A stretch of DNA of 64,000 nucleotides, taken from Synergistales bacterium (GTDB lineage Bacteria; Synergistota; Synergistia; Synergistales; JAFGMB01). The notes beneath the pieces were generated by a model. The model made no database searches. It had not been told where the DNA came from and saw only the letters and a program-made list of their open reading frames with translations. Within the stretch, counting starts at the first letter, position 1, and every line of letters begins with the position of its first letter. The stretch covers positions 1,056,001 through 1,120,000 of the forward strand of contig OY762654.1 of the NCBI GenBank assembly GCA_963666205.1, given 5' to 3'. Shown here piece by piece: positions 2,045 through 37,540 of this stretch. Position numbers and translations under genes: made by a program.

Positions 2045-2060
2045 AACCAAGAGCTGTTTT

Positions 2061-2094
2061 ACCGCAGAGGTCGCAGAGAGCGCAGAGGAAACCG
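2061..2094 (+). repeat. Type-A tandem repeat ACCGCAGAG-GTCGCAGAG-AGCGCAGAG-GAAACCG
   Basis: Exact reverse complement at 2416-2449; one-mismatch reverse complement at 3140-3173. Confidence 0.95.
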
Positions 2095-2362
2095 AAAGGC
2101 AGGCATAAAAATTTCGCTGTGTAGGTTTTTATTAATCTCCTGTTTTATACATGCATGACTTGATCCTACTAAGATAAAGGTTGATGTACTTTTGTGCCAT
2201 GGGCATAAAGAAAATCATCAATTCTAAGAGCAAAACATGTAGTTACCTCAGAGGACGCATCGGAAAATTATAAAGAATGCAATGTTGTTTACTCTTTTGA
2301 CCGTTTATTATTCTAGAAGGTTTTGGCGGATTTCATGTAGACAGGAAGTTCTAGGGGGCTAA

Positions 2363-2451
2363 TCGTGAAAAATCTAGTCTGATTTTTCGCAGTAATACAG
2401 ATTTTACAGGTTTAACGGTTTCCTCTGCGCTCTCTGCGACCTCTGCGGTTA
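2363..2451 (-). repeat. 89-bp direct repeat copy 1 (palindrome B + type-A tandem)
   Basis: 88/89 identical to 3087-3175. Confidence 0.95.
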
Positions 2452-2498
2452 GCTAAGGGGTTTAGGTTTCACGGTCGAGAAGGGGTTTTATTCAATTT

Positions 2499-2876
2499 AT
2501 GGAAATTAATGAAATTAGCAAAACAATTATCGACAGTGCTTTCCAAGTTCACAAAGCATTAGGACCAGGTCTCCTCGAAAGTGCATATGAAGCCTGCCTC
2601 TGCTACGAACTCAAGAAAAGAGGATTTACAGTAGAATCCCAGAAAGTTCTCCCGATAATTTACGATGGACAACAAATTGATGTTGGTTATCGCCTGGATC
2701 TTCTTGTACAAGATCAGGTCATAGTAGAACTCAAATCTGTTGAACATATAAATGAGGTACATAAAGCACAGATACTCTCGTATCTCAAACTTGGTAATAA
2801 GAAACTCGGACTACTTATCAATTTCAACGTAGCCAAAATCAAGGACGGGATAACCCGTATCGTCAACGGTTTGTAG
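2499..2876 (+). CDS. GxxExxY family protein (PD-(D/E)XK nuclease-like fold)
   Basis: 125 aa with GPGLLESAYE, YRLDLLV, IVELK and GLLINFN motifs typical of the family. Confidence 0.92.
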   Translation: MEINEISKTIIDSAFQVHKALGPGLLESAYEACLCYELKKRGFTVESQKVLPIIYDGQQIDVGYRLDLLVQDQVIVELKSVEHINEVHKAQILSYLKLGNKKLGLLINFNVAKIKDGITRIVNGL

Positions 2877-3086
2877 GTTTTTTCGTCTTATAATATCAAG
2901 GTTTTGATTTACAAAGAAAATTGTTAATTAGGTTTTATCTAGTTATGCATATTTGAGGGTTTAGTCGGTCAAAATGGGTTGATCATTTTGACCAGTAGAG
3001 ATTTTTATACAAAAAAGATGTTTTTAGGTTTTCTCTGCGCTCTCTGCGGTTAGACAGGATTTAGACTTTAGGGTTGCCGGTTTTAT

Positions 3087-3175
3087 TCGTGAAAAATCTA
3101 GTCTGATTTTTCGCAGTAATACAGATTTTACAGGTTTAACGGTTCCCTCTGCGCTCTCTGCGACCTCTGCGGTTA
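3087..3175 (-). repeat. 89-bp direct repeat copy 2
   Basis: 88/89 identical to 2363-2451; a shorter type-A copy lies at about 3031-3052 and a palindrome variant at 2965-2995. Confidence 0.95.
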
Positions 3176-3212
3176 AACAGTATTTGATTTTAATAGATTT
3201 TGAGGGGTAAAC

Positions 3213-4442
3213 ATGACACCAGAAGAACAACTCGCACAACAAAACAACCAGCAATATTACTACGAAGACGACGAGATCGACATCCTCGATCTGCTCATTG
3301 TCCTTGCCAAACACAAAAAACTCATCCTTGGCCTCACTACCCTATTTGCGGTTCTTTCCATCGCCTATGCCCTCCTGGCCACACCCATCTACCGGGCAAC
3401 CACAAAGATACTGCCCCCCATGGCTGGCAAACAGAGCATGGCCATGAGCATGATCGCCCAGGCAGGCGTACCCGGCTTTGCCGCCGATGCCCTTGGCATC
3501 AAGACCCCCGGAGACCTTGTGGTGGGTATCGTCAAAAGCCGTACAATCATGGATAAACTGATAAATAAATTCGACCTTCAGGCCAGGTATGAATCCGAAA
3601 ACATGGATCTCACCAGAGAGACTCTTTCCACCTCCACTTCTGCCGCAACCGATGCAAAAACGGGCCTTGTTTCCATTTCCATTGAAGACAAAGACCCTGC
3701 CTTTGCTGCCCAGCTTGCCAACAGCTACGTGGAGGAACTGCAGAACTTCATCCAGCAATTAGCCATAAGCGATGCCGCCCAGCAGCGTCTGTTCCTGGAA
3801 GAACAGGTAAAGGAAACCCAGGTAAACCTTTTGAAGGCCGAAAATGAACTTACCGAATACCAGAAAAAAACGGGGATCCTCAATGCCGGCCAGCAGGCAT
3901 CGTCCCTTATGTCTGCCATCGCCACCTTCCGGGCCCGCATATCCGCCAAGGAAGTGGAACTCCAGGCAGCAGAGACCTTTGCCTCTCCAAACAACCCCAG
4001 GATCCAGAAACTCAGGGCCGAGGTCAAGGGCCTTAAAGAACAGATCCAGAAACTGGAAGCCCAGGCAACGGAGGGCAGCGAAGAATCCTTCAACCTAAGC
4101 GAACTTCCAGATGCAGGCATGGAATACCTCCGTAAGATGAGGGACCAGAAGTTCTACGAGACCTTATACGGCATGCTCCTGAGCCAGTTCGAGCAGGCAA
4201 AGATGGCCGAAGCCCAGGAACCTGCCATCATACAGGTTATAGATGAGGCAGTGCCTCCACAGCTCAAGGCAAAACCAAAACGGAAACAGGTTGTGATCCT
4301 TGCCACGGTTCTCGGATTTTTCCTGTCCATATTTATGAGTTTTGTGATGGAATTTATTGAGAATGCAACAACGGATAACGAACGCAATGAAAAATTAAAA
4401 CTGTTAAAAAAACATTTGAGTTTAAGAAAACAGCAGAACTAA
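3213..4442 (+). CDS. Polysaccharide chain-length determinant / co-polymerase (Wzz/GumC-like, no kinase domain)
   Basis: DEIDILDL N-terminus, two TM helices, coiled coil, VIDEAVPP..K.KPKR motif. Confidence 0.88.
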   Translation: MTPEEQLAQQNNQQYYYEDDEIDILDLLIVLAKHKKLILGLTTLFAVLSIAYALLATPIYRATTKILPPMAGKQSMAMSMIAQAGVPGFAADALGIKTPGDLVVGIVKSRTIMDKLINKFDLQARYESENMDLTRETLSTSTSAATDAKTGLVSISIEDKDPAFAAQLANSYVEELQNFIQQLAISDAAQQRLFLEEQVKETQVNLLKAENELTEYQKKTGILNAGQQASSLMSAIATFRARISAKEVELQAAETFASPNNPRIQKLRAEVKGLKEQIQKLEAQATEGSEESFNLSELPDAGMEYLRKMRDQKFYETLYGMLLSQFEQAKMAEAQEPAIIQVIDEAVPPQLKAKPKRKQVVILATVLGFFLSIFMSFVMEFIENATTDNERNEKLKLLKKHLSLRKQQN

Positions 4443-4547
4443 AGTCTGAGAGTAAAAAGTTTTGAATATCATTTCCAGAAGAATCCAAGGATAAGAGCCA
4501 TATTTCACTCGATTCAACGAATACTATCGAGAAAGGAACGTGTACTC

Positions 4548-6011
4548 ATGAATGGCTCAACATATGCAATAAAGAAGGAAGAACATGTTTTTTCGGGGTC
4601 AAGGTATGGCTATCTTCAGCAATGGATGATGCCCTTCACTTTATTGTCTTCAGATATTATGGCTTTCTTCTTCTCATGGGCAATAGCGATAGTTGTTGCG
4701 ACCCTTATGGGTAAAAACATTGCTTTAGCAGACTATCTGAATTTCCTTTATTTCATACCACTATTTCTCTTTGCCTTTTTGCTAAGCGGACTCTATTCCA
4801 GAACAAGTACAAACCCTGTAGAAGAGATCAGAAAATTATCATTGATAACGTCCTTTTCATTCTTTTTTTTGATCACAGGCATATTTATCATGCATCGGGA
4901 AAGCCTCTTCTTTTACTCAAGGTTTACAATTTCCCTGGCAGGGCTCTCATCTCTGGCAATTATTCCTCTATTGCGAAGCTTTACAAGACATCTTTGCGCC
5001 CATAACGCATGGTGGGGGACTCCAGTCCTGATCCTGGGTGCTGGAAAAACTGGACAGATGATCGCCAGAAAAATAAATGAAACACCATCTTTAGGTTTGA
5101 AATTGATTACTATTCTGGATGACGATCATGATAAACAGCTTGATACACTGTATTTCCCTGCATCAGGTCCCATTTCTGATATGCGAAATATAGCTATAAA
5201 CAACAGGCTCTGTAAAGTGCTTATTTGCATGCCTGGAGTGAGTAAAGAAAAAGTCATCTCCATCATGGACGAATGCACCAGGTATTTTAACCATGTGACA
5301 GTGATTCCGGACCTTTTTGGTATGTCTTCTCTCTGGGTAAACGCAAAAGATATTGGAGGGGTATTAGCCCTTGATATACAGAATTCTTCTCTCTCCACCA
5401 GTGCTCAGTTTATTAAGAGGACTGTGGATGTATTTTTGGTACTAACGGGTGGATTTTTGATTCTCCCTCTAATTTTAATTGTCTCTTTATTTGTAAAACT
5501 GGACTCACCTGGTCGTATCTTTTATGGCAATAAACGAGTTGGAAAGAATGGAAAAAACTTTCTTTGCTGGAAATTTCGAAGTATGAAACAAAATGCAGAT
5601 GAATTACTCAATTCCTATTTAGCTAAAGATCCCACGCTTCAAAAAGAATGGGATAAAACACAGAAACTTCAGAATGACCCTCGCATAACAAAGATCGGGA
5701 AATCGCTAAGGAAATGGAGCATTGATGAACTACCCCAACTCTGGAATGTTTTAAAAGGAGAAATGAGTCTGGTTGGACCCAGGCCATGTTTTGAAGAACA
5801 GTTGAAGATGTACGGGAATAATCAACATCTTTATACCAGCGTTAAGCCAGGTATCACAGGGTATTGGCAGATATCTGGAAGAAACTCTCTTAACTTTGAA
5901 GATCGAGTCAGACTTGAGAGATATTACGTAAGCAACTGGTCAATATGGCTTGATATATATATCCTCGCCAAAACGATAATGGTTGTAATTAAAGGCGAAG
6001 GGGCTTATTAA
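4548..6011 (+). CDS. wbaP: Undecaprenyl-phosphate hexose-1-phosphate transferase (WbaP family)
   Basis: N-terminal TMs, GAGKTG domain, KFRSM, DPRIT, DELPQLWNVLKGEMSLVGPRP, KPGITGYWQISGR, C-terminal GAY. Confidence 0.92.
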   Translation: MNGSTYAIKKEEHVFSGSRYGYLQQWMMPFTLLSSDIMAFFFSWAIAIVVATLMGKNIALADYLNFLYFIPLFLFAFLLSGLYSRTSTNPVEEIRKLSLITSFSFFFLITGIFIMHRESLFFYSRFTISLAGLSSLAIIPLLRSFTRHLCAHNAWWGTPVLILGAGKTGQMIARKINETPSLGLKLITILDDDHDKQLDTLYFPASGPISDMRNIAINNRLCKVLICMPGVSKEKVISIMDECTRYFNHVTVIPDLFGMSSLWVNAKDIGGVLALDIQNSSLSTSAQFIKRTVDVFLVLTGGFLILPLILIVSLFVKLDSPGRIFYGNKRVGKNGKNFLCWKFRSMKQNADELLNSYLAKDPTLQKEWDKTQKLQNDPRITKIGKSLRKWSIDELPQLWNVLKGEMSLVGPRPCFEEQLKMYGNNQHLYTSVKPGITGYWQISGRNSLNFEDRVRLERYYVSNWSIWLDIYILAKTIMVVIKGEGAY

Positions 6012-6052
6012 GACGTCGCCCTCAATTAATTAAGGCTACATGGTGAACTTAC

Positions 6053-6610
6053 TTGAATAAAAAAATTATAGATTTAAGTCAAGCTGGATATGGGAAATTT
6101 AAAAGGACGAGATCCAAATGGATTGAGGCTTTATGGATTATAGTGGAATTTTGCTTTGTAACAAATCCCATACAAGTTTCAAGTAAATTACGTATTCTGC
6201 TTATCAGGATGTTTGGAGGAAAAATCGATAAAAATGTAATCATGAGGCCCAGAGTTCGGATCAAGTTTCCTTGGAATCTGGAAATCGGAAATAACTGCTG
6301 GATTGGTGAAGGTGTTTGGATACATAACCAGGATAAGGTCTACATTGGCAATAATACAGTTATTTCACAAGAGGCATTTATAACAACTGGTTCCCATGAT
6401 CATTACAAAACCATGGATTTGATCACAAAACCAGTCAGGATTGGTTCTGGTGTCTGGATAACCTCCAGAGCAATGATATTGCTAGGTGTTTCAATAGCTG
6501 ATAATGCAATAATTACACCCAACAGTGTTGTACATCGAAACATAGAAAAAGCCGGAATTTATTGCGGAAATCCTGCTGTTTTGATAAAAGAGAGGAAGAT
6601 CACAGATTAA
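6053..6610 (+). CDS. WcaF-like acetyltransferase (hexapeptide repeat)
   Basis: IKFPWNLEIGNNCWIGEGV, SQEAFITTGSHD, GNPA motifs. Confidence 0.85.
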   Translation: MNKKIIDLSQAGYGKFKRTRSKWIEALWIIVEFCFVTNPIQVSSKLRILLIRMFGGKIDKNVIMRPRVRIKFPWNLEIGNNCWIGEGVWIHNQDKVYIGNNTVISQEAFITTGSHDHYKTMDLITKPVRIGSGVWITSRAMILLGVSIADNAIITPNSVVHRNIEKAGIYCGNPAVLIKERKITD

Positions 6611-7853
6611 TCTTCTTGTAATAAGTCTTAATTATGCACCGGAACTTGTTGGTGTTGGAAAGTATTCTTCGGAAATGTGTTCCTGGTTTGTATCGAGGGG
6701 GCATTCAGTAGATGTCATAGCCGGATTACCACATTACCCCGAGTGGGAAATACATCAAGAATACAAGAATAAAGGATTCTACACAGAAGCGATTGATGGA
6801 GTAAATATTTTAAGAGTACCCCATTTTGTTCCTCCAGCAGATAGAGTTAATGCTAAAACCAGAATTAAACTTGAAACAAGCTTTCATTTAAAATCATTGA
6901 GATATGCGTTGCCAATTTTATTCAAAAAGAAGAAATACGATGCTGTTATAGCAGTCTGCCCTCCAATGCAGTCAGGTTTGTTCCCAATGATATACAAGAT
7001 CTTTAGAAATGTCCCATGGATATTTCATGTACAGGACCTCCAGGTAGATGCCGCCCTAAATCTTGGTATTTTAAAAAATCACACTATCATTAGAAAAATG
7101 CTATTTGGGATTGAAAAAATGCTTTTTAAAAATGCTACAAAGGTTTCAACGATCACTGATGCGATGAAACAGAAGATCATTAATAAAGGTATTGATCCAA
7201 ACAAAATGGTTCTTTTCCCAAATTGGGCTGATCTGGATTTTATTAAACCTATGGATAGAAATAATCCCTTAAGAAAAGAATTTGGCTATACAGAAGACGA
7301 TACTGTAATCATGTATGCCGGTAATATGGGTGAAAAACAGGGACTCGAAATAATTATTGATGCAGCATGTCATTTTACACAAGATTCAAACATCCAGTTT
7401 GCCATGGTTGGCGACGGGACTGCAAAAAAAAGGTTAACTAAATTAACTCGAGACAAAGGGCTTACCAACCTTCATTTTTTCCCATTGCAACCTCTTCAGA
7501 AATTACCGAATCTCCTAGCCATGGCAGATATTCATCTGGTTATCCAAAAAAGGGAGGCTTGTGACTTAGTTATGCCATCGAAATTAACTAATATTTTGGC
7601 TGCTGGAAGACCTATTATAGCAACTGCAAAATATGGAAGCCACTTATATCAAGTTATTGTTGAAAACCAATGTGGTTTGGTTTTAAAGTCACACAGGACA
7701 GTTGAACTAATTGAAGGCATCAAAAATCTCACCAATCAAGCCCTGATGGTAGAACAAATGGGACAAAAATCTCGATTTTATGCCATAAACTATTTTGATA
7801 AAGAAAAGATCCTCCAAGAAATGGTATATAACATAAATCGGATAATGACCTAA
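6606..7853 (+). CDS. WcaI-like GT4 glycosyltransferase, probable ATT start
   Basis: In-frame extension INLLVISLNYAPELVGVGKY matches the WcaI N-terminus; HVQDLQVDA, YAGNMGEKQGLE and MPSKLTNILA motifs; ORF track starts at 6675. Confidence 0.85.
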   Translation: MNLLVISLNYAPELVGVGKYSSEMCSWFVSRGHSVDVIAGLPHYPEWEIHQEYKNKGFYTEAIDGVNILRVPHFVPPADRVNAKTRIKLETSFHLKSLRYALPILFKKKKYDAVIAVCPPMQSGLFPMIYKIFRNVPWIFHVQDLQVDAALNLGILKNHTIIRKMLFGIEKMLFKNATKVSTITDAMKQKIINKGIDPNKMVLFPNWADLDFIKPMDRNNPLRKEFGYTEDDTVIMYAGNMGEKQGLEIIIDAACHFTQDSNIQFAMVGDGTAKKRLTKLTRDKGLTNLHFFPLQPLQKLPNLLAMADIHLVIQKREACDLVMPSKLTNILAAGRPIIATAKYGSHLYQVIVENQCGLVLKSHRTVELIEGIKNLTNQALMVEQMGQKSRFYAINYFDKEKILQEMVYNINRIMT

Positions 7854-8006
7854 TTGTGATGGATACATAAATATAGATAAAAATGCAAATTATCCCTGCT
7901 AGGAATTGGTAACTTATTTCCCTAAAAGAATATGAATTGACCTTAGGTTTTACTATTTGTAAACACAAGATTTCTCGTAGTATTAAATTATTAGTATGAG
8001 AAAGGA

Positions 8007-9125
8007 ATGGAAATGAAAGAAGAAGACGGCCGCGTAAAGATCGTGTTATTATCACCTCTCCCACCTCCATCCGGAGGTATTGCTACTTGGACAAGCTCTA
8101 TCTTAAGAAGCAGATTGACCAAGCACTATAAATATATTCTTGTTAATACCAGGATAACAAGTCAAAGAGGGACGAGTGAATCATGTTGGCAATTTCCTTT
8201 TAGTGAATTAGCTAGAAATGGAAAGATAATCTTTAATTTTCTTTATGCTATTTTTTATCATTCACCTAAGCTTGTCCATATAAACAACGCTTCATGGAGT
8301 TTTGGTGGTATTTTCAGGGATTTACTCTTAGCTACCATATCAATAATTTTTAGGAAAAAAGTAATCATTCATTTTCATGATTGTTTAGTGTATCGACCAA
8401 AGTCTTTGTTCTATAGATTTTTATTAACTCAGTTAATTAAAACTTCAACTCTGATTATCACCTTAGACAAAAAATCAGAGAAATTTATAGAGAATCTTTC
8501 GATAAAACATAAGAATTATAGTTTCTCTCTATGTAACATTCCAAATTTTATTGACAATAACAAAATATTACTAGATTCAGAAAATATGCATTCAATAAAG
8601 AATGTCAAAGTTTTATTTGTTGGAAGTATAACAAAAAACAAAGGATGTCGCGACATCCTTGAAGTTGCAAGATCATTACCAGAGATACAGTTTACGCTTA
8701 TTGGTAAGGTCCAGTCAGATATGATCGAATTGGTCAGAAAAATAGCTGAGCCCAACATTAAGTTTATCTCTGAAATATCGAATCGAGAAGTATTGAAAGA
8801 AATGCAAAAAGCCAATATTTTTTTGTTACCTTCATATAAAGAAGGATTCCCATTAGTTATTCTTGAAGCAATGGCAAACAGATTACCTGTAATAGCAACA
8901 AATGTAGGAGCTATACCTGAAGTTATCATTCAAAACAAGGGTGGATATGTGCTTAAACCAGGTGATGTTCAATCGATGAAAGAATTGTTAACAAAACTTA
9001 GATTAAACCTAGATTTAAGGTTGGAAATGGGTGAGTTTAATTTTGACTTTGTTTCTAAGAAGTTTCTTCTGTCAAACATTGAAAAATACCTTTACGAAGC
9101 ATATCAGAAAGTCCTCTCGAAATAA
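8007..9125 (+). CDS. GT4 family glycosyltransferase
   Basis: SPLPPPSGGIATW N-terminus; EGFPLVILEAMA (EX7E) motif. Confidence 0.88.
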   Translation: MEMKEEDGRVKIVLLSPLPPPSGGIATWTSSILRSRLTKHYKYILVNTRITSQRGTSESCWQFPFSELARNGKIIFNFLYAIFYHSPKLVHINNASWSFGGIFRDLLLATISIIFRKKVIIHFHDCLVYRPKSLFYRFLLTQLIKTSTLIITLDKKSEKFIENLSIKHKNYSFSLCNIPNFIDNNKILLDSENMHSIKNVKVLFVGSITKNKGCRDILEVARSLPEIQFTLIGKVQSDMIELVRKIAEPNIKFISEISNREVLKEMQKANIFLLPSYKEGFPLVILEAMANRLPVIATNVGAIPEVIIQNKGGYVLKPGDVQSMKELLTKLRLNLDLRLEMGEFNFDFVSKKFLLSNIEKYLYEAYQKVLSK

Positions 9126-9231
9126 AAGCTAAGTACAGAGAAAATAGGTTTTCAAGAACCTTTTGGATTATAACATTGATTGATTGATTGATTTCTTGAA
9201 CAGTACCAAGAGATCGGATTAATAAAATTGG

Positions 9232-10359
9232 ATGGTGAAAGATTTGCGAAAAGTCCTCTTTTATACTGGGAGTCTGGCATCAGGGGGGGCAGAGAGACAG
9301 TTGATATACACTGCGCTATCCGCTCAATTAAATGGTTATAAGGTGCTTATAGTAATCGATCATGACCACTGCGACTACACCAAAATGTTGGAAGGTACAA
9401 ATATTGAAATCTATTGCACTCATTCGAACAAGTACAATCCAATAAAACGTTATATTAAATTAAATGGAATAATACAAGAATTTAAGCCTGAAATTTTCCA
9501 TTCATTCCTAGCAAACAAAAATTTATGGGGTATGTTATTAGCATATTTGAACAAAGTTCCGATTAAAATTGCCTCGATAAGAAACACTAATTCTTCAGCT
9601 TTTAAGGGAATTCAATTCTACAACAAATGGGCAGACAAGATAATATGCAATTCAAGGTTTGCATATGAAATTGCTCATTCCACATACGGAGTCCCAAGAA
9701 AAAAATTGGAAGTCATCTATAATTGCATCGATATGGATCGCTTCAACAATACAATGATCTCTCTAGATATAAAACATAATTTGGGACTTTTGGACAACAC
9801 CAAACTTGGTATAACTGTAGCTCGTTTTTCCAAACAGAAAAATCATCTGGGTTTTGTCAAAGCTTTTAGTAATTTTGTTGGAGAAAATTCAAGTGTTTGT
9901 CTGCATCATTTGTTTGTAGGCAATCAAAAAGATATAAAAATAGTGCAGCCGGTAAGAGCAACCGTTGATACCTTGAATTTATCTGAAAACATAACCTTTT
10001 GGGATACCAGAGAAGATATTCCAGAAATAATAAAAGCCTGCGATTTTCTTATACTCCCTTCTCTATATGAAGGTTTTCCAAATGTTGTTATGGAAGCGAT
10101 GGCTTCAAAAACATTTGTAATTGCAACAGCAGTAGGGGGTATACCAGAACTGGTTAAGCATATGGAAAATGGAATCTTAATTCCTAGCCCACGTGCAAAA
10201 GATATTGCAAAATCAATTGAATTATATCTCTCTCTTTCTGCTGAAAAAAAAGAACGAATAATTAATCAAGCATATATCGATATACAAAGCTACGGTATTG
10301 AAAACATGTTTAGACAAACTGAAGAGCTCTACACAGTATTTAATTTCTCCATAGGATAG
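9232..10359 (+). CDS. GT4 family glycosyltransferase
   Basis: GGAERQL N-terminus; EGFPNVVMEAMA motif. Confidence 0.88.
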   Translation: MVKDLRKVLFYTGSLASGGAERQLIYTALSAQLNGYKVLIVIDHDHCDYTKMLEGTNIEIYCTHSNKYNPIKRYIKLNGIIQEFKPEIFHSFLANKNLWGMLLAYLNKVPIKIASIRNTNSSAFKGIQFYNKWADKIICNSRFAYEIAHSTYGVPRKKLEVIYNCIDMDRFNNTMISLDIKHNLGLLDNTKLGITVARFSKQKNHLGFVKAFSNFVGENSSVCLHHLFVGNQKDIKIVQPVRATVDTLNLSENITFWDTREDIPEIIKACDFLILPSLYEGFPNVVMEAMASKTFVIATAVGGIPELVKHMENGILIPSPRAKDIAKSIELYLSLSAEKKERIINQAYIDIQSYGIENMFRQTEELYTVFNFSIG

Positions 10360-10418
10360 CGCTGTCATAATCTCCCCCAAAAGGAACTTACCTAATCAAT
10401 AGCAACATTAGGAGGATT

Positions 10419-11339
10419 TTGCTCATGCCCAGAACCTTCATAAAATCACCAAAGAATCATAAAAGTCTAATCGCTATGCTTTTCAGCTATATAAAACCTT
10501 CTATTTGGCATATTTGCGAAATGCTACCAGATAGACTTTTTATTTCGCTTATATTTAGGAAGTCAATGGGTTATTTTCCGAACTTAAATCAACCCAAAAC
10601 ATATAACGAAAAGATTCAATGGTTAAAGTTAAATGACCGGAAACCTGAATATCATGAGATGGTTGATAAATACGAGGTTAGGAAGTTTGTTTCAGAAAGA
10701 ATAGGAAGCAAATATTTAATTGACTTGTATGGGTTATATAACTCTTCTGAAGAAATAGATTTTTGCCAGTTACCCAACCAATTCGTTATGAAATCGACAC
10801 ATGGCTCTCATTCAGTCTACATTTGCAAGAATAAAACTGAAGAGGATTACAACAAGATAAGAAATTTGAGCAAAGATTGGTTTAATCAAGACATTTATAC
10901 AAGATATAGAGAATGGGCCTACAAAGGTCTTAAAAAAAGAATAATTGCGGAAAAGTTATTAGTCGATTCAGAAGGGAAAACCCCAGATGATTATAAAATA
11001 ATGTGTTTTAATGGAAAACCAATGGTAATACAACATCATCAGAATCGTTTTGGGAACTATACCTTGGATTATTATGATTGTAATTGGAAACGATTAAGTG
11101 TTTATAGACCATATGCCCCAAATTCTTCGAACCCCAAACCTAAACCAATCAATCTAGAGAATATGGTGAACATAGCTAAATCTCTATCCAAAGGAATCAA
11201 GTTCGTTAGGGTAGATCTTTACAATTTAGGAGGAATAATTAAGTTTGGGGAAATGACTTTTTATCCAACAAGCGGTCTGACCCCATTAGAACCACCAGAA
11301 TGGGATATCTTATGGGGACAGTTAATTGATATTAGTTAA
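10419..11339 (+). CDS. TupA-like ATP-grasp amidoligase
   Basis: PKTYNEKIQWLKL, VDKYEVR, KSTHGS, DYKIMCFNG, FVRVDLY, FGEMTFYP. Confidence 0.85.
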   Translation: MLMPRTFIKSPKNHKSLIAMLFSYIKPSIWHICEMLPDRLFISLIFRKSMGYFPNLNQPKTYNEKIQWLKLNDRKPEYHEMVDKYEVRKFVSERIGSKYLIDLYGLYNSSEEIDFCQLPNQFVMKSTHGSHSVYICKNKTEEDYNKIRNLSKDWFNQDIYTRYREWAYKGLKKRIIAEKLLVDSEGKTPDDYKIMCFNGKPMVIQHHQNRFGNYTLDYYDCNWKRLSVYRPYAPNSSNPKPKPINLENMVNIAKSLSKGIKFVRVDLYNLGGIIKFGEMTFYPTSGLTPLEPPEWDILWGQLIDIS

Positions 11340-11371
11340 TGGTCCCTTCTCAAAATTCAGAAGGGACCATT
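11338..11371 (+). terminator. Hairpin after first ATP-grasp gene
   Basis: AATGGTCCCTTCT-N8-AGAAGGGACCATT perfect stem. Confidence 0.55.
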
Positions 11372-11470
11372 GTTGATGCCATACTTCTTGTATATGGAAG
11401 CGGGAGAGTTGCTTTATGCTTCAGCAATAATAGCCACCTTTTGATCTTGATTATAGTTTCGTAACTGTAG
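11372..11470 (-). pseudogene. Possible IS3-family OrfA (HTH) fragment
   Basis: Translates as RNYNQDQKVAIIAEA*SNSPASIYKKYGIN, resembling a transposase OrfA N-terminus with a stop. Confidence 0.35.
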
Positions 11471-11663
11471 CCTTGTTGGCCTTATTATAATTTTTCGAAT
11501 GATTTAGTACAACTCTTCTGGTGATCAGGAAGTATCAGTAATTATCAACTTCGAAATACATTTTTTCTTGAAAGCATAAGGATTCACAAAGATTTGACAT
11601 TCGAGAATTAGCTAATCAGCACTTCCTCATGTATAGGAAGCTTACCGAGAGGAGTAAGACGAA

Positions 11664-12995: not shown

Positions 12996-13109
12996 ACATG
13001 CTTTAAACAATACCAAATATATTTAATTATTTATTAATATTTTTTCATAGATTTATCTGAACACAATATCTTATTGAACAAGTGACAAACAGGGGATATC
13101 TATTTCTAA

Positions 13110-14118: not shown

Positions 14119-14347
14119 GGTCATCAAGAGGAGAATCTAAAATGAGAAGATTCTCTATTATTAGTCGATTTTTTATTCCTTCTGAATTCGCTCTGAAATA
14201 TGAAGGGGGAAAAGAAGTCACTGTTACATAGCAAGAATAAGAAACTTGTATCTATACTTACTTAAACATAAAAAGCAGATAATAGTGGCATGTCTCTTGC
14301 ATTATCTAATATCTAAGAAATAATATTTATCCTACAAATCGAAAGAG

Positions 14348-16542: not shown

Positions 16543-16669
16543 TGTTTAAGATGTTAGCACAAATGGGTTCAGGCCTTGCATGAACAGTTTGACACAAGAA
16601 TTGGGGTCTACTATTGAAATCGTAGATAATTGTAGCCCCAGGTGATACCCCGGAAAAGGACTTAACTAC

Positions 16670-17533: not shown

Positions 17534-17554
17534 GTTTTACCTGGAGGATCCTTA

Positions 17555-17929: not shown

Positions 17930-17966
17930 GTCTTACTCTATATTTCGAAGAAGGTGTTCCTGCGAA

Positions 17967-20253: not shown

Positions 20254-20370
20254 ACAGCACCTTAATAAAATGGGGTCAGACCTTGATTTTAACCGTATGT
20301 ATTCAGTATTATGTAAATATTTTAGCCCTGCGAAAACCATGAAACCATAAAATCCAACCATCACCCTTTC

Positions 20371-21264
20371 TCACCACGGAGGTCACGGAGGAAGTTCGGA
20401 GGAAACACTGGAGCAAGACCAAAAGACATATTTTACCGCAGGGACTCTCCGAGTCCGCGCAGAGGCCGCAGAGAGGAGCACGCAGAGGGGATCGTTATCC
20501 TTTAACCCAGGACATCTGAGCAATCTGGAGCCATTGCTCATCTCGCAATAATAAATTTCCAGGCAAAATATAGATATTTCCCCTGTTCATTGTTTTATTG
20601 CCTTGAAAAATATACTTCATATTTTTCATTATTGTCCTAGGCTTTCAAATGCAAGGAGATGAAAAAAAATTTAGAAACAGGAGGCTTTGGCAATCTTTCC
20701 CGTGAATTTATCCATTACCTGGAAAATGATTTCATCATTTTCCTAATGTCCCGGGTTTTCAAGAAAACCTATTTACAAAGGAAAACTACAGGGACCATTA
20801 CACCCAAACCATAAATCCTGGGTGGTTAATGAACCCATGACATCTTCCAAGGGCATTTCGATGCGTTGAAGTCCGCCGCAAATCCGTCAAAGATCTTCCA
20901 AAAACTTAAAGCAGGATGGCCGGACATTCTGCCCTTTCATATAAAACCGTCAGGCCCGAGTAGTGGCGGACTTTCAGCGCGGGTCTAGAAGATCAAGAAA
21001 TAGGCCACTTTGTCGGCTGCGAAAAATAAGACTAGATTTTTCACGAATAAAACACCGGGAAAAGTTTAAGATGCGCTGAAGCACATCCTATGGATTGCTG
21101 TCGCGTAGGAAGGCACAAACCTTGAGGTAACTGTTCAGGAGTAACATCCTATTTTCGTCCGGACAGACTATCGGTGCGCTGAAGCACACCCTATGACCAA
21201 GGTTTTGGGGAATAAACATAAAAATATTATTGAGCGTTTTGGTGCGCTGAAGCGGCACCCTATG
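20371..21264. repeat. Intergenic repeat cluster 2
   Basis: CACGGAG tandem at 20373, GCAGAG tandem at 20435-20488, GGCGGACTT pair at 20863/20964, palindrome B at 21017-21046, three GRTGCGCTGAAGCRCAYCC hairpins at 21070, 21173, 21241. Confidence 0.9.
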
Positions 21265-21280
21265 GAGGGAGAACTACGAG

Positions 21281-24696: not shown

Positions 24697-24990
24697 GTTT
24701 TACCGCAGAGGACGCAGAGTAACGCAGAGGAAATCAAACATGAGGGAACCCATGCTGCGAAAAATCAGACTCGATTTTTCACGAATAACCCCCGAATCAT
24801 AGCCCATAAAACTGTTTACCACGGAGGGACACGGAGGAAGGCATAAAGAATGGTGTGCTGCGCAAAATGATGGACCTATTTTGCACGATTAGAACCGTAA
24901 ACCTTGTAACCCTGTCTAACCGCAGAGGGCGCAGAGGAAAAGAAAATCGCACATTAACAATAGAATGATGCGCTGAAGCACATCCTATGG
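24697..24990 (+). repeat. Intergenic repeat cluster 3
   Basis: Tandems at 24702, 24818, 24919; palindrome B at 24755-24784 and 24858-24888; hairpin E at 24967-24990. Confidence 0.92.
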
Positions 24991-25085
24991 AAAACTAACA
25001 TCAAGATAATATAGAGTTATAGGTGCTCTGAAACCCACACCAACAGGAGACGCTACCTGAAACCCGAAATCCTGACAGGAATTTT

Positions 25086-26110: not shown

Positions 26111-26545
26111 TATTTTACCGCAGAGGAAACCGAAAGACTGAGAACCGTAAACCAAAAAACCTGTTTCACCACGGAGGACACGGAGGAGGATCTGAGGAAA
26201 ACCAGATCAAAATCAAAACACGTTTTACCGCAGAGGGCGCAGAGAGCGCAAAGGAAAGCATGAACCCTTGGTTAGAACAGACTGTTTCTGAATTCTGAAT
26301 GAGGTATGTTCGGATGATATGCTACTTTACCGATAGGTTGTTGGATGTCACGAAATCGGAGATTTGTGCCATGGAAACCCGTAAAGCCCAAACGCTAAAA
26401 CCCTTTCACCACGGAGGACACGGAGGTACACGGAGGAGACCGTTAAACCAATAAATCCTTGTGTTACTGCGCAAAATGATGGACCTATTTTGCACGATTA
26501 GAACCGTAAACCGTTTAACCCTGTCTAACTGCAGAAGGCGTAGGG
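26111..26545 (+). repeat. Intergenic repeat cluster 4
   Basis: Tandems near 26117, 26168, 26227, 26408, 26528; palindrome B at 26467-26497; 26227-26371 matches 29331-29475 with 2 mismatches. Confidence 0.92.
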
Positions 26546-29163: not shown

Positions 29164-29907
29164 CGATTTTAGATTGGGGATTTTGGATTAAAAGATAGAA
29201 AACAACACCCAGAGCTTAAAAACTGTTTTACCGCAGAGAACGCAGAGGAAATCCTCAAATCTTTTTTTACTGCACAAAATGATGCACCAGTTTTGCACGA
29301 TTAGAACCGTAAACCTTTTAACCCTGTCTAACCGCAGAGGGCGCAGAGAGCGCAGAGGGAAGCATGAACCCTTGGTTAGAACAGACTGTTTCTGAATTCT
29401 GAATGAGGTATGTTCGGATGATATGCTACTTTACCGATAGGTTGTTGGATGTCACGAAATCGGAGATTTGTGCCAGGAGTCTAACTTCTAACCTGGAGGA
29501 CACAGAGGAAAACATAAAACCTAAGTCAAAATCTATTTTACTGCAGAGGATCCGCCGTAAACCATCGTATAAAACCATTAGACCCAAGTAGTGGCGGACT
29601 TTCAGCGCAGAGGAAAGCATGAACCCTTGGATTTGAAAATCTACTGCGCAAAACGGTGATACTATTTTGCTCGAGTTAAACCTAAGAACCGTAAAGCTGA
29701 ACTGTTTAAACCTTTCACCACGGAGGGCACGGAGTGCCACGGAGGTAAACCAGGTCAAAATCAAAAGCTGTTTTACCGCAGAGGGCGCAGAGGAAGGCGT
29801 AAGCCCTTGGGGTAACTGTTCAGGGATAACATCCCATATACATCCGGACAGATCATATCCTACTATGATAAAGGTTTTGGGGAGGCACAAAATCGGAGAT
29901 TTGTGAC
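29164..29907 (+). repeat. Intergenic repeat cluster 5 (longest mosaic)
   Basis: Heptamer run 29164-29189; tandems at 29230, 29331, 29540, 29717, 29775; palindrome B at 29270 and 29644; element D 29546-29608; palindrome F at 29451 and 29884. Confidence 0.92.
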
Positions 29908-31474: not shown

Positions 31475-31545
31475 TTTTCACCACGGAGTATTACAGAAGA
31501 AAACATGGGGTCTAATCGAAAATCGCAAATCTAAAATCTAAAATT
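31475..31545 (+). repeat. Repeat cluster 6: short CACGGAG unit plus AAAATCT-type heptamer run
   Basis: TTTTTCACCACGGAG near 31475; AATCGAAAATCGCAAATCTAAAATCTAAAATT at 31514-31545. Confidence 0.75.
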
Positions 31546-32245: not shown

Positions 32246-32260
32246 CCCAACAGAAACGAT

Positions 32261-32293: not shown

Positions 32294-32323
32294 TATAAAA
32301 TATTCCGGTAGGAGGTGAGAGTT

Positions 32324-33396: not shown

Positions 33397-33417
33397 GAAA
33401 TGCTGTCTTATCCGGTT

Positions 33418-34599: not shown

Positions 34600-34628
34600 A
34601 AAAAAACCTCCCAAGTATGTAGTGATCT

Positions 34629-34669
34629 AAAAACAAAAAGGCCGGAACCTCTGAAAAAGGCTCCGGCCT
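34629..34669 (-). terminator. Attenuator terminator in aminotransferase leader
   Basis: AGGCCGGAGCCT...AGGTTCCGGCCT stem followed by TTTTGTTTTT on the minus strand, about 30 nt before the start codon. Confidence 0.8.
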
Positions 34670-34682
34670 GGACCTTCAGCGC

Positions 34683-34769
34683 TTATGCGCCAACATAAGC
34701 TCCAGGGGGAAACCCGCAGCGGGATAGAATGTCTATAATGTAAATAAAGACGATAAACAGGACTTGCAT
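34683..34769 (-). CDS. Putative leader peptide MQVLFIVFIYIIDILSRCGFPPGAYVGA
   Basis: 28 codons after a G-rich SD; 12 of residues 3-15 are I/V/L/F/Y; ends just before the terminator. Confidence 0.65.
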   Translation of the reverse strand: MQVLFIVFIYIIDILSRCGFPPGAYVGA

Positions 34770-34973
34770 TTTACTATTCCCCCCCCACTCGTTAAGCTTG
34801 TCGGCTAATTTAAAAATATTGAGAATAATTCTAACCTTCCAGACATGGGGTGTCAAACCTGCACCATTAAATAAGGCTTCTTCAGGTAAATAAAGCTTTC
34901 TTTACAATTCTTAACTCTTTTTTGTTCTCTTTTTCGGATAAAATAAAGAAAATTACTTCTAAAAACAACAGGG

Positions 34974-35729
34974 ATGATGGAAATGACTCGGATATTAGCA
35001 ATTGAAGATGATGTGGAGCTCTGCGAACTTCTTTCGGAATACCTGGGATCGGAAGGTTTCTGCTTCAGTTCCGTACACTCAGGAAAGAAGGGTGTTGAGG
35101 CCGCTCTCAAGGGAGAACATGACATTGTGGTACTGGATGTCATGCTTCCTGAAATGAACGGTTTCGATGTCCTGAGGAGTATTCGGGCGGAATCGGCCGT
35201 ACCTGTAATAATGCTCACTGCCAGGGGCGACGATGTGGACAGGATAGTAGGCCTGGAGATCGGGGCTGACGATTACGTTCCCAAACCTTTCAATCCCCGG
35301 GAACTGATAGCCAGGATAAAGGCGGTACTTCGAAGGTATGAGGGAGGAGTTAAGAATACACCCTCCGTGGTTGGTGAACCCATCCTCCAGGTAGCTGATA
35401 TAGAGCTTGATCCTCGATCACATGTGGTGAAAAGGGAGGGAGAGGTAGTTGAACTTACTTCCCTGGAATTCAGGCTGCTGGAGACTTTCCTTGAAAAGGC
35501 CGGAGAGGTAATAAAAAGACAGGATCTCGTGAGAAAGGTCCTGGAGAGGTCCTATTCTCCCTTCGACAGGAGCATTGACGTTCATATCAGCAATCTCCGG
35601 AAAAAGATCGGTCCGGGAAATGATGGCACAGAGAGAATAAAGACAATAAGGGGAGAAGGTTACCTTTATTCATGCCCCTCCAGCCCTGGTGATGAGAAAA
35701 GGGATGTCCGGGAAAGGACAGGTCAGTGA
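34974..35729 (+). CDS. OmpR-family response regulator (CpxR-like)
   Basis: Receiver LDVMLP, GADDY.PKPF; winged helix PFDRSIDVHISNLRKK as in CpxR. Confidence 0.88.
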   Translation: MMEMTRILAIEDDVELCELLSEYLGSEGFCFSSVHSGKKGVEAALKGEHDIVVLDVMLPEMNGFDVLRSIRAESAVPVIMLTARGDDVDRIVGLEIGADDYVPKPFNPRELIARIKAVLRRYEGGVKNTPSVVGEPILQVADIELDPRSHVVKREGEVVELTSLEFRLLETFLEKAGEVIKRQDLVRKVLERSYSPFDRSIDVHISNLRKKIGPGNDGTERIKTIRGEGYLYSCPSSPGDEKRDVRERTGQ

Positions 35730-37209
35730 AAATATGATACTGAATGAAACCACCAGGGGAAAGATGTTCAGGAAGATCTTCCTCTGGTTCATGGCTGCCC
35801 TTGCAATAATATTTGTAGTAGGTATCAGTTCTGCCTATTTTGCCCACCAGGGTTTTACAAGGACAGAACTTCGCTCTGAATTTGGCGAAGCCCTGGATGA
35901 ATATGGACCCCAGGCGGTGGAGACCTACGAAAACCAGGGAAAAGAAGGCCTCGACAGTTTTCTGAAACTTTCAAACCGGAAGGTCCGGGGAAGGATGATG
36001 CTTTTCACCTCTGATGGCAAGGCCATTCTGAGGCTCTTCCGCCAGGATCGACAGGACAAGGATCAGGAAGAGGACCAGGGCAGACTTGAAAAGTTTTTAA
36101 TGGAGACCTTGAGAGAAAACGGAACCAGATTCACTTTTATCGGCCCCCTGGGGATCCTGGCCAGAAAGATAAGTTCCGAAAAGGGAAATGACTATGTCTT
36201 CGCTGCCTTCAGATTTGTTCCGCCTCCCTTTCCCTCCAGAGAAAATGCAGGAACAATGATCTTCAGGCTGCTGGCAGTCCTGGCAGCAGGAGCTGCAGCA
36301 TGTTACTGGCTGGCAAACAATATGGCAGTTCCAATAAGAAAACTTCGGGAGGCAACGCAGAAACTGGCCCAGGGTGATCTAGGGGTCAGGGTTGAAGAAA
36401 AACTTACCTTCAGGAATGATGAAATTGGAGACCTGGGGAAGGGTTTCAACATTATGGCTGAACATCTTGAAGATCTTATCGGGGCCCAGAAAAGGCTTAT
36501 CGGGGATATTTCCCATGAGCTTAGGACACCCCTGGCCAGGCTCAATATAGCCCTTGGCCTTGCCCGGAAACGCTCCGGGACGGAAGCTGAAACTGCCCTT
36601 AACAGGATCGAACTCGAGACTGAACGACTGAACGATATGATAGGCCAGCTGCTTTCCCTTTCCCGTTTTGAGACAGATATGACAAATATGCAGAAGATCA
36701 GGATCAATCTGACTGAACTTGTGGGAGATATAGTAATAGATGCCAGGTTCGAGGCAGAATGTAAGAACTGCGACGTAAAATTCGATCCGGTGAAGGATAT
36801 TTACATCTACGGCGACCCGACCCTGATCTCGCGAGCCACAGAAAATGTTGTACGGAACGCTCTCAAACATAACCTGGAAAACAGAGATGTTGAGATCACC
36901 CTTGAAGATCCTTATTCAACGACAAAGGGGAATATGGCGGTGATAAGGGTAAAGGACCACGGAGAGGGAATCGATGAGAAGGAACTGGAAAATATATTCA
37001 AACCCTTTTACCGTCTGGACTCGGCAAGGGACAGGAAAACAGGAGGTACCGGTCTGGGACTGTCCATAGCGGAACGGGCGGTCAAACTCCACGGGGGTTA
37101 TATCAGGGCTTGTAATTCTCCCGGCGGGGGGTTGACGGTGGAGATAGGGCTGCCGATGGGGAATATAAAACCAGTAAAACCCTGTTTTACCGGCAGAGAA
37201 AAACAGTAG
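35689..37209 (+). CDS. HAMP-domain sensor histidine kinase (CpxA-like)
   Basis: Two TMs, HAMP, DISHELRTPLARL, ENVVRNA, GGTGLGL. Confidence 0.88.
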   Translation: MMRKGMSGKGQVSENMILNETTRGKMFRKIFLWFMAALAIIFVVGISSAYFAHQGFTRTELRSEFGEALDEYGPQAVETYENQGKEGLDSFLKLSNRKVRGRMMLFTSDGKAILRLFRQDRQDKDQEEDQGRLEKFLMETLRENGTRFTFIGPLGILARKISSEKGNDYVFAAFRFVPPPFPSRENAGTMIFRLLAVLAAGAAACYWLANNMAVPIRKLREATQKLAQGDLGVRVEEKLTFRNDEIGDLGKGFNIMAEHLEDLIGAQKRLIGDISHELRTPLARLNIALGLARKRSGTEAETALNRIELETERLNDMIGQLLSLSRFETDMTNMQKIRINLTELVGDIVIDARFEAECKNCDVKFDPVKDIYIYGDPTLISRATENVVRNALKHNLENRDVEITLEDPYSTTKGNMAVIRVKDHGEGIDEKELENIFKPFYRLDSARDRKTGGTGLGLSIAERAVKLHGGYIRACNSPGGGLTVEIGLPMGNIKPVKPCFTGREKQ

Positions 37210-37540
37210 ATCCTCTCCTCCAACGGCTGAGATCCATAAACCTAAAACCTTTTTCACCATGGAGGATCCGCCGTAAACCATCGTATAAAACATTCAGACC
37301 CAAGTAGTGGCGGACTTTCAGCGCTGAGGTTGCGCAGAGTAACGCAGAGGTAAAACATACCCCCTTCTGTGCCATAAAAATGGTGTGCTGCGCAAAATGA
37401 TGGACCTATTTTGCACGATTAGAACCGTAAACCTTTTAACCCTGTCTAACCGCAGAGGGCGCAGAGGACACAGAGGAAACCCAGTCAAGGTCAAAACGTT
37501 AAGGCGGACTGTAAGCGCAGAGGAAACATGTAACCGCAAA
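37165..37540 (+). repeat. Intergenic repeat cluster 7
   Basis: Element D 37262-37324; 37374-37468 nearly identical to 24843-24938; tandems at 37332 and 37449. Confidence 0.92.

Follow-up and report, generated by a model that had tools for sequence, protein, structure and literature searches.

Tandem arrays in the window

What are the short, oriented arrays of a 9-nt unit that recur between the genes of an exopolysaccharide locus in this Synergistales genome, and are they read as DNA or as RNA? The initial annotation had counted about 25 copies in the window, which is the whole 64,000-nt stretch analysed. The window contains 21 instances of the exact pattern RCRGAG-N3-RCRGAG (RCRGAGNNNRCRGAG), whereas 100 dinucleotide shuffles gave 0.06 on average and never more than 1; with two mismatches allowed there were 84 matches versus 30 expected, and TRF called period-9 arrays at 10 of the places with an exact match. 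We listed 21 intergenic copies anchored by ACC, from 2061 to 37475 and each of one to three units. To these are added two arrays without an ACC head (20457-20489 and 37321-37351), plus some four degenerate single units, in agreement with the earlier count, and all the coordinates given earlier hold when an offset of a few bases is allowed. Also as described before, there are two sub-types, GCAGAG and ACGGAG, with TGTTTT, CTGTCTA or CCTTTC before the ACC and GAAA after the array. A three-unit array with its head can be written ACC(GCAGAGGNC)3; the 9-mer is purine-rich and not self-complementary.

At the left end of the window, a forward arm of three GCAGAG units (2061..2093, plus strand) begins 17 nt past the stop codon of a wza-type gene. 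A reverse arm, again of three GCAGAG units (2417..2449, minus strand), lies about 50 nt ahead of the start codon of a gene for a GxxExxY protein of 125 aa with a PD-(D/E)XK fold (2499..2876, plus strand). The two arms make a perfect 33-nt inverted repeat, which closes the predicted fold as a duplex of -73 kcal/mol, and the 323 nt between them are gene-less (longest ORF 33 aa). Downstream of the gene are two more reverse arms, one of two GCAGAG units (3031..3050, minus strand) and one of three (3141..3173, minus strand), the latter 32/33 identical to the arm at 2417-2449 and directly before a wzz-type gene. The repeats had been described as non-palindromic direct repeats that form no hairpin. 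This stands for the single array, which is no palindrome in itself, and for most copies, which are solo, but not for paired inverted arms, which form long hairpins; besides the pair at 2061 and 2417, two more forward/reverse pairs are situated just upstream of the window.

Every multi-unit copy between 20.3 and 37.5 kb is on the plus strand, the single orientation noticed at the outset. The series comprises a solo ACGGAG array with TCGGAG as third unit (20373..20401), a degenerate GCAGGG head followed by the headless GCAGAG array (20435..20489), a solo three-unit GCAGAG array antisense to both adjoining genes (24702..24729), a solo two-unit ACGGAG array (24818..24836) and a solo two-unit GCAGAG array with a CTGTCTA leader, 3' of a small hairpin module (24919..24936). 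A single GCAGAG unit with a TTTT-ACC leader and a GAAACC trailer (26117..26125) is followed by a composite (26168..26253) made of an ACGGAG array (26168-26185), a spacer and a GCAGAG array (26227-26253), by a solo three-unit ACGGAG array (26408..26435) and by a degenerate GCAGAA unit behind a CTGTCTA leader (26528..26536). Then come solo GCAGAG arrays of two units, 69 nt past the stop codon of a UDP-glucose dehydrogenase-type gene (29230..29247), and of three units (29331..29357), a single GCAGAG unit (29540..29548) and a second composite (29717..29792; ACGGAG array 29717-29744, spacer, GCAGAG array 29775-29792). One low-depth environmental contig carries an extra 9-nt unit behind 29355, at a depth of 3.8 of 9.4, which is a weak observation. 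A single ACGGAG unit with a degenerate one (31480..31498) lies 33 nt past the stop codon of a mannose-1-phosphate guanylyltransferase-type gene and is followed by a tandem of AATCYAAA units of about 8 nt (31510..31545), an arm type that elsewhere in the genome brackets its sole four-helix-bundle (PF05635) gene. The last members are the headless GCTGAG/GCAGAG array (37321..37351) and a three-unit array of GCAGAG, GCAGAG and ACAGAG (37449..37475), all on the plus strand. As had been seen, no multi-unit copy follows in the window beyond 37475; in the genome the following one is 326 kb away.

Distribution in the genome and its relatives

A clustering near envelope loci had been raised in the initial annotation. 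Our genome-wide scan places 34 of 41 array loci within one 62-kb stretch around the variable exopolysaccharide locus, 2% of the 2.95-Mb genome, and all copies are situated between protein-coding genes. The series extends 24 kb upstream of the window, chiefly on the minus strand, so that the left flank is minus and the right flank plus, a polarity which is retained in a congener. The composite of 26168..26253 is found again in each flank, and two further genera of the family also have it.

We define a GxxExxY cassette operationally here by a gene of the PF13366/TIGR04256 family, coding for about 125 aa, in or beside ACC-headed inverted arms of 2-4 units, the forward arm directly preceding the gene and the reverse arm directly following it. 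This full layout is found at a second PF13366/TIGR04256 copy upstream of the window (C1:1051150-1051527), whose arms are at 1050956 (plus) and 1051661 (minus), with spacers of 134 nt and about 160 nt. The window gene has inverted arms beside it and a different layout: because its upstream arm is a reverse one and two reverse arms stand downstream, we regard the window cassette as a rearranged copy. The genome thus contains a single complete cassette, immediately upstream of the window, the rearranged one at 2061-3173, one gene-less arm pair and about 30 solo arms.

A comparison of 31 genomes of the order shows high counts of the pattern in just two, this genome (36 matches) and its congener (21 matches), which are also the sole carriers of PF13366 genes among them. 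Arrays are also present in two genomes of the same family (completeness 97% and 86%), in neither of which a GxxExxY gene was found; together with the solo arms, this indicates that the persistence of arrays does not need the gene. Between the two congeners shared genes are 85-93% identical, and intergenic arrays have been gained, lost or swapped wholesale: the wza-wzz gap has arms in both genomes and the gene only in ours. Neither a target-site duplication nor a clean filled-versus-empty site was found.

The GxxExxY gene and its arms across phyla

The product of the window gene matches PF13366 (E 6e-45) and TIGR04256 (E 1e-46), and its structure model reaches a pLDDT of 95.8. In 53 GxxExxY sequences E27, D67, K79 and Q91 are invariant and E77 is nearly so. 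The protein retains the PD-(D/E)XK residues and is likely an active nuclease. A fold search returned only generic nuclease-fold matches, the best being Cas4 SSO0001 (E 1.4e-3, TM 0.56).

The exact 28-nt triple unit occurs at no fewer than 127 loci in many phyla, including Cyanobacteria, Verrucomicrobiota, Planctomycetota, Acidobacteriota, Chloroflexota, Gemmatimonadota, Nitrospirota, Spirochaetota, Myxococcota and others. Among the matches listed, 135 sites are unique; a reverse copy lies within 700 nt downstream in 43 and upstream in 11, and there is none within 700 nt at 84 of the 135. Where the arms are spaced by 384-412 nt the interior is a GxxExxY gene (L019, L042, L065), and among 90 neighbouring ORFs scanned around such sites only 3 are GxxExxY. 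Also among the matches listed, arrays adjoin unrelated housekeeping genes, and one Spirochaete chromosome carries head-to-tail arm-bounded units every 1.2-1.5 kb.

Concerning the strength of the gene link, an unbiased sample was obtained from 80 metagenomic GxxExxY loci picked by protein similarity alone. An upstream/downstream inverted-repeat score of at least 14 was reached in 50 of 78 loci (shuffled maximum 12), and a forward array upstream with a reverse array downstream accompanied 45 of 74 genes, versus 2 of 74 in the reversed-sequence control. Arm variants differ between cassettes (GCAGAG, ACAGAG, ACGGAG, GCGGAG, ACAAAG, ACGAAG, GCAAAG, ACCAAG and more), so the two sub-types of the window are merely two among many, and the cross-phylum consensus is ACC(RCNRAGNNC)n. 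Four-helix-bundle IVS-type genes likewise have tandem-array arms, at 13 of 17 loci, and the cyanobacterial ones in the sample are bracketed by inverted heptamer arrays, which we take to be the published STRR heptamers; Vioque is said to have reported in 1997 an STRR inside the RNase P RNA gene. As judged from these comparisons of sequence, the arrays are not lineage-specific iterons; they are the end arms of a cross-phylum cassette type built around a GxxExxY PD-(D/E)XK gene.

Pattern recognition or RNA pairing

Two arms of one cassette could be kept alike by pairing with each other in RNA or by matching a pattern that is read in each of them. Unit positions 2, 5 and 6 were fixed in advance by the search pattern, and position 9 is C in 83% of units. 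Agreement at the R positions is 78% for the arm pair of a single cassette and 49% for arms of different cassettes; at the three variable positions the figures are only 50% and 39%. The transitions in the arm alignments comprise 82 that would give G·U in sense RNA and 79 that would give A·C, no bias towards G·U, and there are 219 transversions. Since conserved positions match and variable ones barely do, with no G·U bias, recognition of a sequence pattern is favoured over RNA pairing, and the arms would be read as such a pattern by a mechanism that we infer. The suggestion of a protein-binding role made from the window is thereby the favoured one, as the conserved positions of the 9-mer are kept and the variable ones differ freely between the arms of one cassette. 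Arm class hardly tracks the protein tree (17 changes; shuffled mean 20.5, minimum 15), and therefore gives no support for a co-evolving specificity.

These numbers weigh upon the alternative that survives best, an RNA-level element of the 23S-rRNA intervening-sequence type, which we consider possible but doubtful. In read-through transcripts the arms would pair into a stem of about 30 bp enclosing the small ORF, hide the Shine-Dalgarno-like last unit (GAGG) and be cut by RNase III, solo arms being decayed halves. The perfect inverted repeat at 2061/2417 would suit such a stem, as would the tandem-array arms of four-helix-bundle IVS-type genes and the forward arms of other phyla, which end 5-10 nt ahead of the start codon and carry GAGG or AGGA in the last unit; in Coxiella, RNase III is described to cut an IVS whose terminal stem of 28 bp encloses a small ORF (PMC4990558). 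However, the mismatches just given show no excess compatible with G·U, variable positions are scarcely matched between arms, and we read eight multi-unit arrays of the window as antisense to the genes on either side. At 45 of 55 loci the cassette points the same way as its upstream neighbour, which counts in favour of this alternative, but co-orientation of 71-82% is about ordinary for any neighbouring bacterial genes.

A signal serving the host, as proposed for STRR and REP, appears quite improbable. The arrays would stabilise mRNA or couple translation, tandem Shine-Dalgarno-like GGAGG/GAGG words holding ribosomes or a regulator on the transcripts of the exopolysaccharide locus. Several sense arrays do begin 17-70 nt past a stop codon (2061, 29230, 31480), ACGGAG units contain GGAGG, and STRR hairpins have been proposed as transcript stabilisers or translation couplers (PMC2670836); against this, many arm variants elsewhere have no such word (CGCAGATGA, CACAGATAA, CGCGAAAAG), some copies in the window run antisense to the genes beside them, the arrays show no orthologous conservation between congeners, and in other phyla the same arrays stand next to unrelated housekeeping genes. 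Iterons, as considered in the initial annotation, or polar signals of the chromosome (for replication, partition or of a Chi/KOPS-like kind) would fit short oriented direct repeats with a strict regional polarity kept in the congener, but are largely refuted and scarcely credible, since both orientations are present and flip at about 1.06-1.076 Mb, which the GC-skew extremes at about 0.06 and 1.68 Mb place mid-replichore, the loci are concentrated in 2% of the genome, no replication or partition protein was found among the 56 proteins scanned in the region, and the motif is common to many phyla together with the nuclease gene.

Proposed explanation

We propose, with a probability of roughly 0.6, that the arrays form the arms at the two ends of a selfish type of small-gene cassette, and that solo and gene-less copies are its non-autonomous leftovers. 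A cassette would consist of a forward arm, a short cargo, typically the gene for the 125-aa GxxExxY nuclease, and a reverse arm, each arm having two to four tandem 9-mers of the form ACC(RCNRAGNNC)n. A protein that reads sequence, most likely the nuclease encoded by the cassette itself, would contact the conserved positions of the 9-mer and might act symmetrically on both ends, as transposases do with terminal inverted repeats. Solo and gene-less copies would be independent of the gene and a source of dispersed homology, and recombination and slippage at them may reshuffle the intergenic mosaics, and probably also the gene content, of the polysaccharide locus. What the data show is how the arrays are built and distributed, that they are tied to the gene family and turn over between congeners, and that pattern rather than pairing is conserved; binding, cleavage and mobility would be the presumed working of the cassette.

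Some observations sit less easily with a cassette. Most window copies are solo, without partner or gene, a PD-(D/E)XK protein of 125 aa is small for a transposase, and this reading leaves the strict polarity of both flanks unaccounted for. A bolder and rather improbable extension sees in GxxExxY proteins a new kind of nuclease that recognises ends and would read tandem 9-mers with one protomer per unit via the conserved C-RC...RAG positions, the arms bounding exchangeable "cargo slots" of a cross-phylum cassette-exchange machine that, in this Synergistota lineage, would have colonised a surface-polysaccharide locus and would drive its variation. If this were true, the mixing of the flanks and their conserved polarity would both follow from recurrent recombination of left with right arms in opposite orientation.

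Comparison with known systems

No description of GxxExxY cassettes with tandem-repeat inverted arms was found in our literature search, and Rfam gave neither a match relevant to the arrays nor an rRNA in window positions 1-40000. CRISPR arrays, already discounted from the sequence, have repeats of 24-48 nt, unique spacers of similar length and cas genes; here the units abut without spacers and none of the 56 region proteins is a Cas protein. Like integrons, the locus has oriented boundary repeats separating exchangeable gene slots, but the arms are tandem 9-mers rather than attC-type imperfect palindromes and neighbouring genes point both ways; the 56 proteins include no IntI tyrosine recombinase, only an rve fragment at 13526-13885, and attC membership was rejected.

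With REP/REPIN-RAYT systems and BIMEs the arrays share a small nuclease-type gene between inverted repeat copies, many gene-less copies and intergenic mosaics with other modules. They differ in that the unit is no palindrome, the gene encodes a PD-(D/E)XK protein and not a Y1 transposase, copies are clustered instead of dispersed, and the arm pattern is cross-phylum; REPs are, to our knowledge, species-specific. The three Y1_Tnp genes of the genome (1.557, 1.643 and 2.458 Mb) have other modules as flanks and no 9-mer arrays nearby, and membership in this class was discarded.

The intervening sequences of 23S rRNA in Coxiella, Leptospira and Salmonella have terminal inverted repeats of about 28 bp around an ORF of about 120 aa and are seen as selfish elements or remnants of transposition (PMC4990558). 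Inverted repeats enclosing a small ORF are common to both, and the PF05635 gene of this genome has tandem-repeat arms as well; however, our copies lie between protein-coding genes and not in a 23S rRNA helix, which excludes membership, the cargo is a PD-(D/E)XK protein, most copies are solo arms, and the arms consist of tandem 9-mers whose variable positions are mismatched.

The STRR of filamentous cyanobacteria are short head-to-tail intergenic units of no assigned function that form hairpins when arrays face each other (PMC2670836). No tie of STRR to the GxxExxY gene family was found in the literature searched. The arrays described here are likewise short intergenic tandems capable of hairpins; their unit, however, has 9 nt and not the 7 nt of the heptamer of heterocyst-forming cyanobacteria, and ACC(RCNRAGNNC)n is common to many phyla, Synergistota included, and tied to the GxxExxY family.

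Tandem 9-mer arrays in the window

On re-inspection, the window holds the tandem 9-mers at the coordinates and with the unit types that the initial annotation had reported. In the window, RCRGAG-N3-RCRGAG is matched exactly 21 times; 0.06 matches would be expected, and none of 100 shuffles gave more than one. Arrays of period 9 are also reported there by TRF. The earlier figure of about 25 copies is also reproduced, as 21 intergenic copies headed by ACC (1-3 units each, 2061-37475), two that lack the ACC head and a few single units in degenerate form. Between 20.3 and 37.5 kb every multi-unit copy lies on the '+' strand and, after about 37.6 kb, the rest of the window contains no multi-unit array, both as first described.

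A perfect 33-nt inverted repeat (2061-2093 with 2417-2449) constitutes an arm pair. Its interior (2094-2416) has no ORF longer than 33 aa; about 110 nt of it are common to the arm pair at C1:1054314-1054701 (C1 being the single contig of this genome), beyond which the two diverge. An Rfam E-value scan of window positions 1-40000 returned just two weak, irrelevant matches. RNA-library contigs from environmental runs overlap arrays at 24891-24994, 26165-26241 and 29331-29535, from which neither transcription nor ends follow; one low-depth environmental contig carries one extra 9-nt unit, a weak hint of variation in unit number.

Association with GxxExxY genes

It is well supported that the arrays are the end arms, mostly orphaned, of GxxExxY-type cassettes found across phyla, a complete cassette being a forward arm, a GxxExxY protein gene (PF13366, TIGR04256) and a reverse arm. 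One such gene is located in the window at 2499-2876, and a second copy, 4.5 kb upstream of the window, has a forward array on one side and a reverse array on the other and forms a complete cassette (locus L002, C1:1050942-1051756).

The exact 28-nt triple GCAGAG unit, scanned in one genome per species, occurs at at least 127 loci in many phyla. Among the matches listed, a reverse copy stands downstream within 100 nt, forming hairpins, at 29 of 135 unique sites, downstream at 101-700 nt at 14/135 and upstream at 11/135, and 84/135 have no reverse copy within 700 nt. Forward and reverse arms spaced by 384-412 nt enclose a GxxExxY gene. GxxExxY genes are also present in each of the five motif-bearing genomes searched from other phyla, flanked there by forward and reverse tandem 9-mer arrays whose sequence varies by locus.

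As an unbiased sample, 80 metagenomic loci were picked on protein similarity alone. The best upstream/downstream inverted-repeat score reached at least 14 in 50 of the 78 evaluable loci and at least 12 in 62 of them, while scores for shuffled flanks averaged 7.7 and never exceeded 12. Using a strict 9-nt regular expression, a forward array upstream together with a reverse array downstream was found at 45/74 loci, compared with 2/74 reversed sequences. In these arms, C stands at position 9 of the unit in 83%, and the bases at 3, 7 and 8 vary; the search pattern itself prescribed positions 2, 5 and 6 (C, A and mostly G) as well as the purines at 1 and 4. From this composition it follows that ACC(RCNRAGNNC)n comes in at least ten variants, of which GCAGAG and ACGGAG are two, so that both sub-types originally proposed are present without being the full set. 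Neighbouring genes are co-oriented with the cassettes in 45/55 cases upstream and 45/63 downstream, shares that do not clearly exceed the usual co-orientation of genes.

Some individual loci deserve mention. In Scytonema (L158/L163) and in a Verrucomicrobiae MAG (L019/L159), about 340 nt of inserted sequence interrupt one GxxExxY gene and another carries a frameshift, and decaying copies therefore occur within otherwise intact arm pairs. A Spirochaetaceae chromosome (L048-L052, L060-L061) carries units every 1.2-1.5 kb, each delimited by a reverse arm followed, after about 25 nt, by a forward arm, in a layout like that of a cassette array; some units contain ORFs of 234-250 aa belonging to no Pfam family and one contains a GxxExxY gene. 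At three loci of an Acidobacteria MAG (L022, L037, L039), the tandem 9-mers CGCTGATGA and CGCGAATGA lie just 3' of GCAGAG arrays, which places arms of different types next to one another.

The GxxExxY protein

E27, D67, K79 and Q91 do not vary across 53 GxxExxY sequences, and G24, Y30 and E77 hardly do. The structure of the window protein is predicted with confidence (pLDDT 95.8). A sequence search of the PDB found no relative, and Foldseek gave no match at E <= 0.001, the best being Cas4 SSO0001 (E 1.4e-3), ahead of lambda exonuclease, splicing endonucleases and Hjc. The predicted model thus resembles only generic PD-(D/E)XK nucleases and, the matches being generic, the fold provides no mechanistic lead. 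In its accessible text, a 2012 survey of the PD-(D/E)XK superfamily describes GxxExxY as of unknown function and subject to multiple horizontal transfers (PMC3424549).

Conservation of pattern or of pairing

Inverted arms could be read either as the two sides of an RNA stem or as sites on DNA recognized by a protein. Between-arm mismatches in 68 cassettes comprise 82 of G·U type in the sense RNA, 79 of A·C type and 219 transversions. At the two R positions the arms agree in 78% within one cassette and 49% between cassettes, and at the variable positions in 50% and 39%, respectively. What is conserved is a periodic pattern in mirror orientation, which would fit protein recognition sites at element ends and not a base-paired stem. 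The DNA/protein reading is ranked above the RNA-stem reading mainly because the pattern is kept and the pairing is not. Accepting protein recognition of DNA, the arms may act both as protein-read ends and as recombination substrates.

No target-site duplications or clean insertion boundaries were found in the gaps compared with the congener or in the flanks of hairpin copies; these gaps are alignable only at their gene-proximal ends, and the flanks of hairpin copies mostly prolong the inverted repeat (TTA-ACC...GGT-TAA). The idea that arm class and protein co-evolved was set aside as weak at best, since a quick tree of 79 proteins with 40 labelled tips required 17 state changes, against a shuffled mean of 20.5 (range 15-24).

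Genomic setting, polarity and turnover

The genome is a single 2.95-Mb contig, of which the window covers C1:1056001-1120000. Clustering near envelope loci, a check proposed by the initial annotation, was seen in a genome-wide scan, in which 34 of 41 array loci fall within 1,031,992-1,093,475, around polysaccharide genes. The polysaccharide core, all on the '+' strand, encodes a wza-type exporter, a wzz-type co-polymerase, a priming sugar transferase, glycosyltransferases and a flippase. This core (window 4356-21106) is not common to the congener, which has a different 15-kb set there, and this surface-polysaccharide locus is hypervariable. Within the cluster, an isolated fragment of an rve integrase core (120 aa, 13526-13885) is probably an IS remnant.

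To the left of the core 19/22 array loci are on the '-' strand, the three '+' loci each being the forward member of a forward/reverse pair, and to the right 12/12 are on the '+' strand. The congener has the same polarity, with '-' for 6/6 left arrays and '+' for 8/10 right arrays. Array direction is indeed independent of neighbouring genes, as had been noted: eight multi-unit arrays of the window are antisense to both neighbours, therefore gene direction does not set array orientation. Local duplication might also produce uniform orientation, and it is ruled out because the nearest relative by flank similarity lies on the same side for 18/32 copies, against 17.1 by chance; copies of the left and right flank are not separate lineages. 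Replichore polarity is excluded by GC skew, whose extremes fall near 0.06 and 1.68 Mb; the flip in orientation is therefore not a replichore boundary. As a candidate mechanism, left and right copies of opposite orientation may recombine, which would preserve polarity and mix the flanks.

Among 31 genomes of the order, RCRGAG-type matches number 36 in the genome under study, 21 in the congener and 7 and 6 in two other genera of the family; the pattern is essentially absent from the remaining genomes, and a reversed-pattern control gave about 0. Weak matches in G008 and G017, two genomes from another family, are in coding-like sequence and look like chance. In the two other genera the arrays sit in composites of the window type (ACGGAG array, spacer, GCNGAG array), while PF13366 genes were found, among the 31 genomes, only in the genome under study and its congener. 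These two are syntenic around the locus, with genes 85-93% identical, and nearly every gap has gained, lost or replaced arrays: the arrays sit in a fast-changing polysaccharide locus. The L002 cassette is 98% identical between them, compared with about 87-93% for neighbouring genes, which suggests recent exchange or strong constraint; a DUF4143 ATPase gene block (C1:1044691-1046084) is 97.9% identical.

Other modules of the intergenic gaps

The sole PF05635 four-helix-bundle gene of the genome, of the type found in intervening sequences (IVS) of 23S rRNA, lies within C1:1513900-1514680 between inverted tandems of the 8-nt unit AATCYAAA, which also occurs in the window (31510-31545) and at about a dozen other dispersed places. 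Inverted tandem arms with units of 6-9 nt flank 13/17 four-helix-bundle genes in five genomes of other phyla; in the sampled cyanobacteria they are heptamers, which we take to be of the short tandemly repeated repetitive kind (STRR).

A small GC-rich hairpin (21070-21093, 21174-21196, 21241-21265 and 24967-24990) also brackets a Y1_Tnp gene (PF01797, C1:2458242-2458547, region C1:2458019-2458768), which is the classical REP/RAYT layout and is distinct from the 9-mer arrays. A module of about 38 nt (20268-20305), with at least 13 further copies genome-wide, flanks another Y1_Tnp gene (C1:1557052-1557375, region C1:1555571-1557466) in inverted orientation, like IS200/IS605-type ends. No 9-mer arrays stand beside either of these Y1_Tnp genes, at 2.458 and 1.557 Mb. 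Since the other modules belong to other systems, the gaps are BIME-like mosaics in which the 9-mer arrays are the GxxExxY-linked component.

Significance and comparison with known systems

In the literature searched, that outside subscription journals, the accessible text of papers naming GxxExxY or PDDEXK_3 does not treat repeats, six 15-mers from the arrays occur in no paper, and family accessions and combined terms retrieved nothing relevant. It is unusual for a 28-nt non-coding sequence to be identical letter by letter from cyanobacteria to spirochaetes and Synergistota, and this one is linked to an orphan family of proteins that is very large. The arms are the first candidate nucleic-acid target for the GxxExxY family and make its function directly testable. 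The arrays also account for the repeat-rich intergenic gaps of the polysaccharide locus and for their rapid change between congeners. The arms join STRR repeats, ORF-bearing rRNA IVS and small 'hypothetical' genes wedged in operons into one small-gene cassette architecture with tandem-repeat arms. As far as the accessible text of the respective papers describes those systems, the array-bearing cassettes are similar in build to STRR (PMC2670836) and to IVS (PMC4990558).
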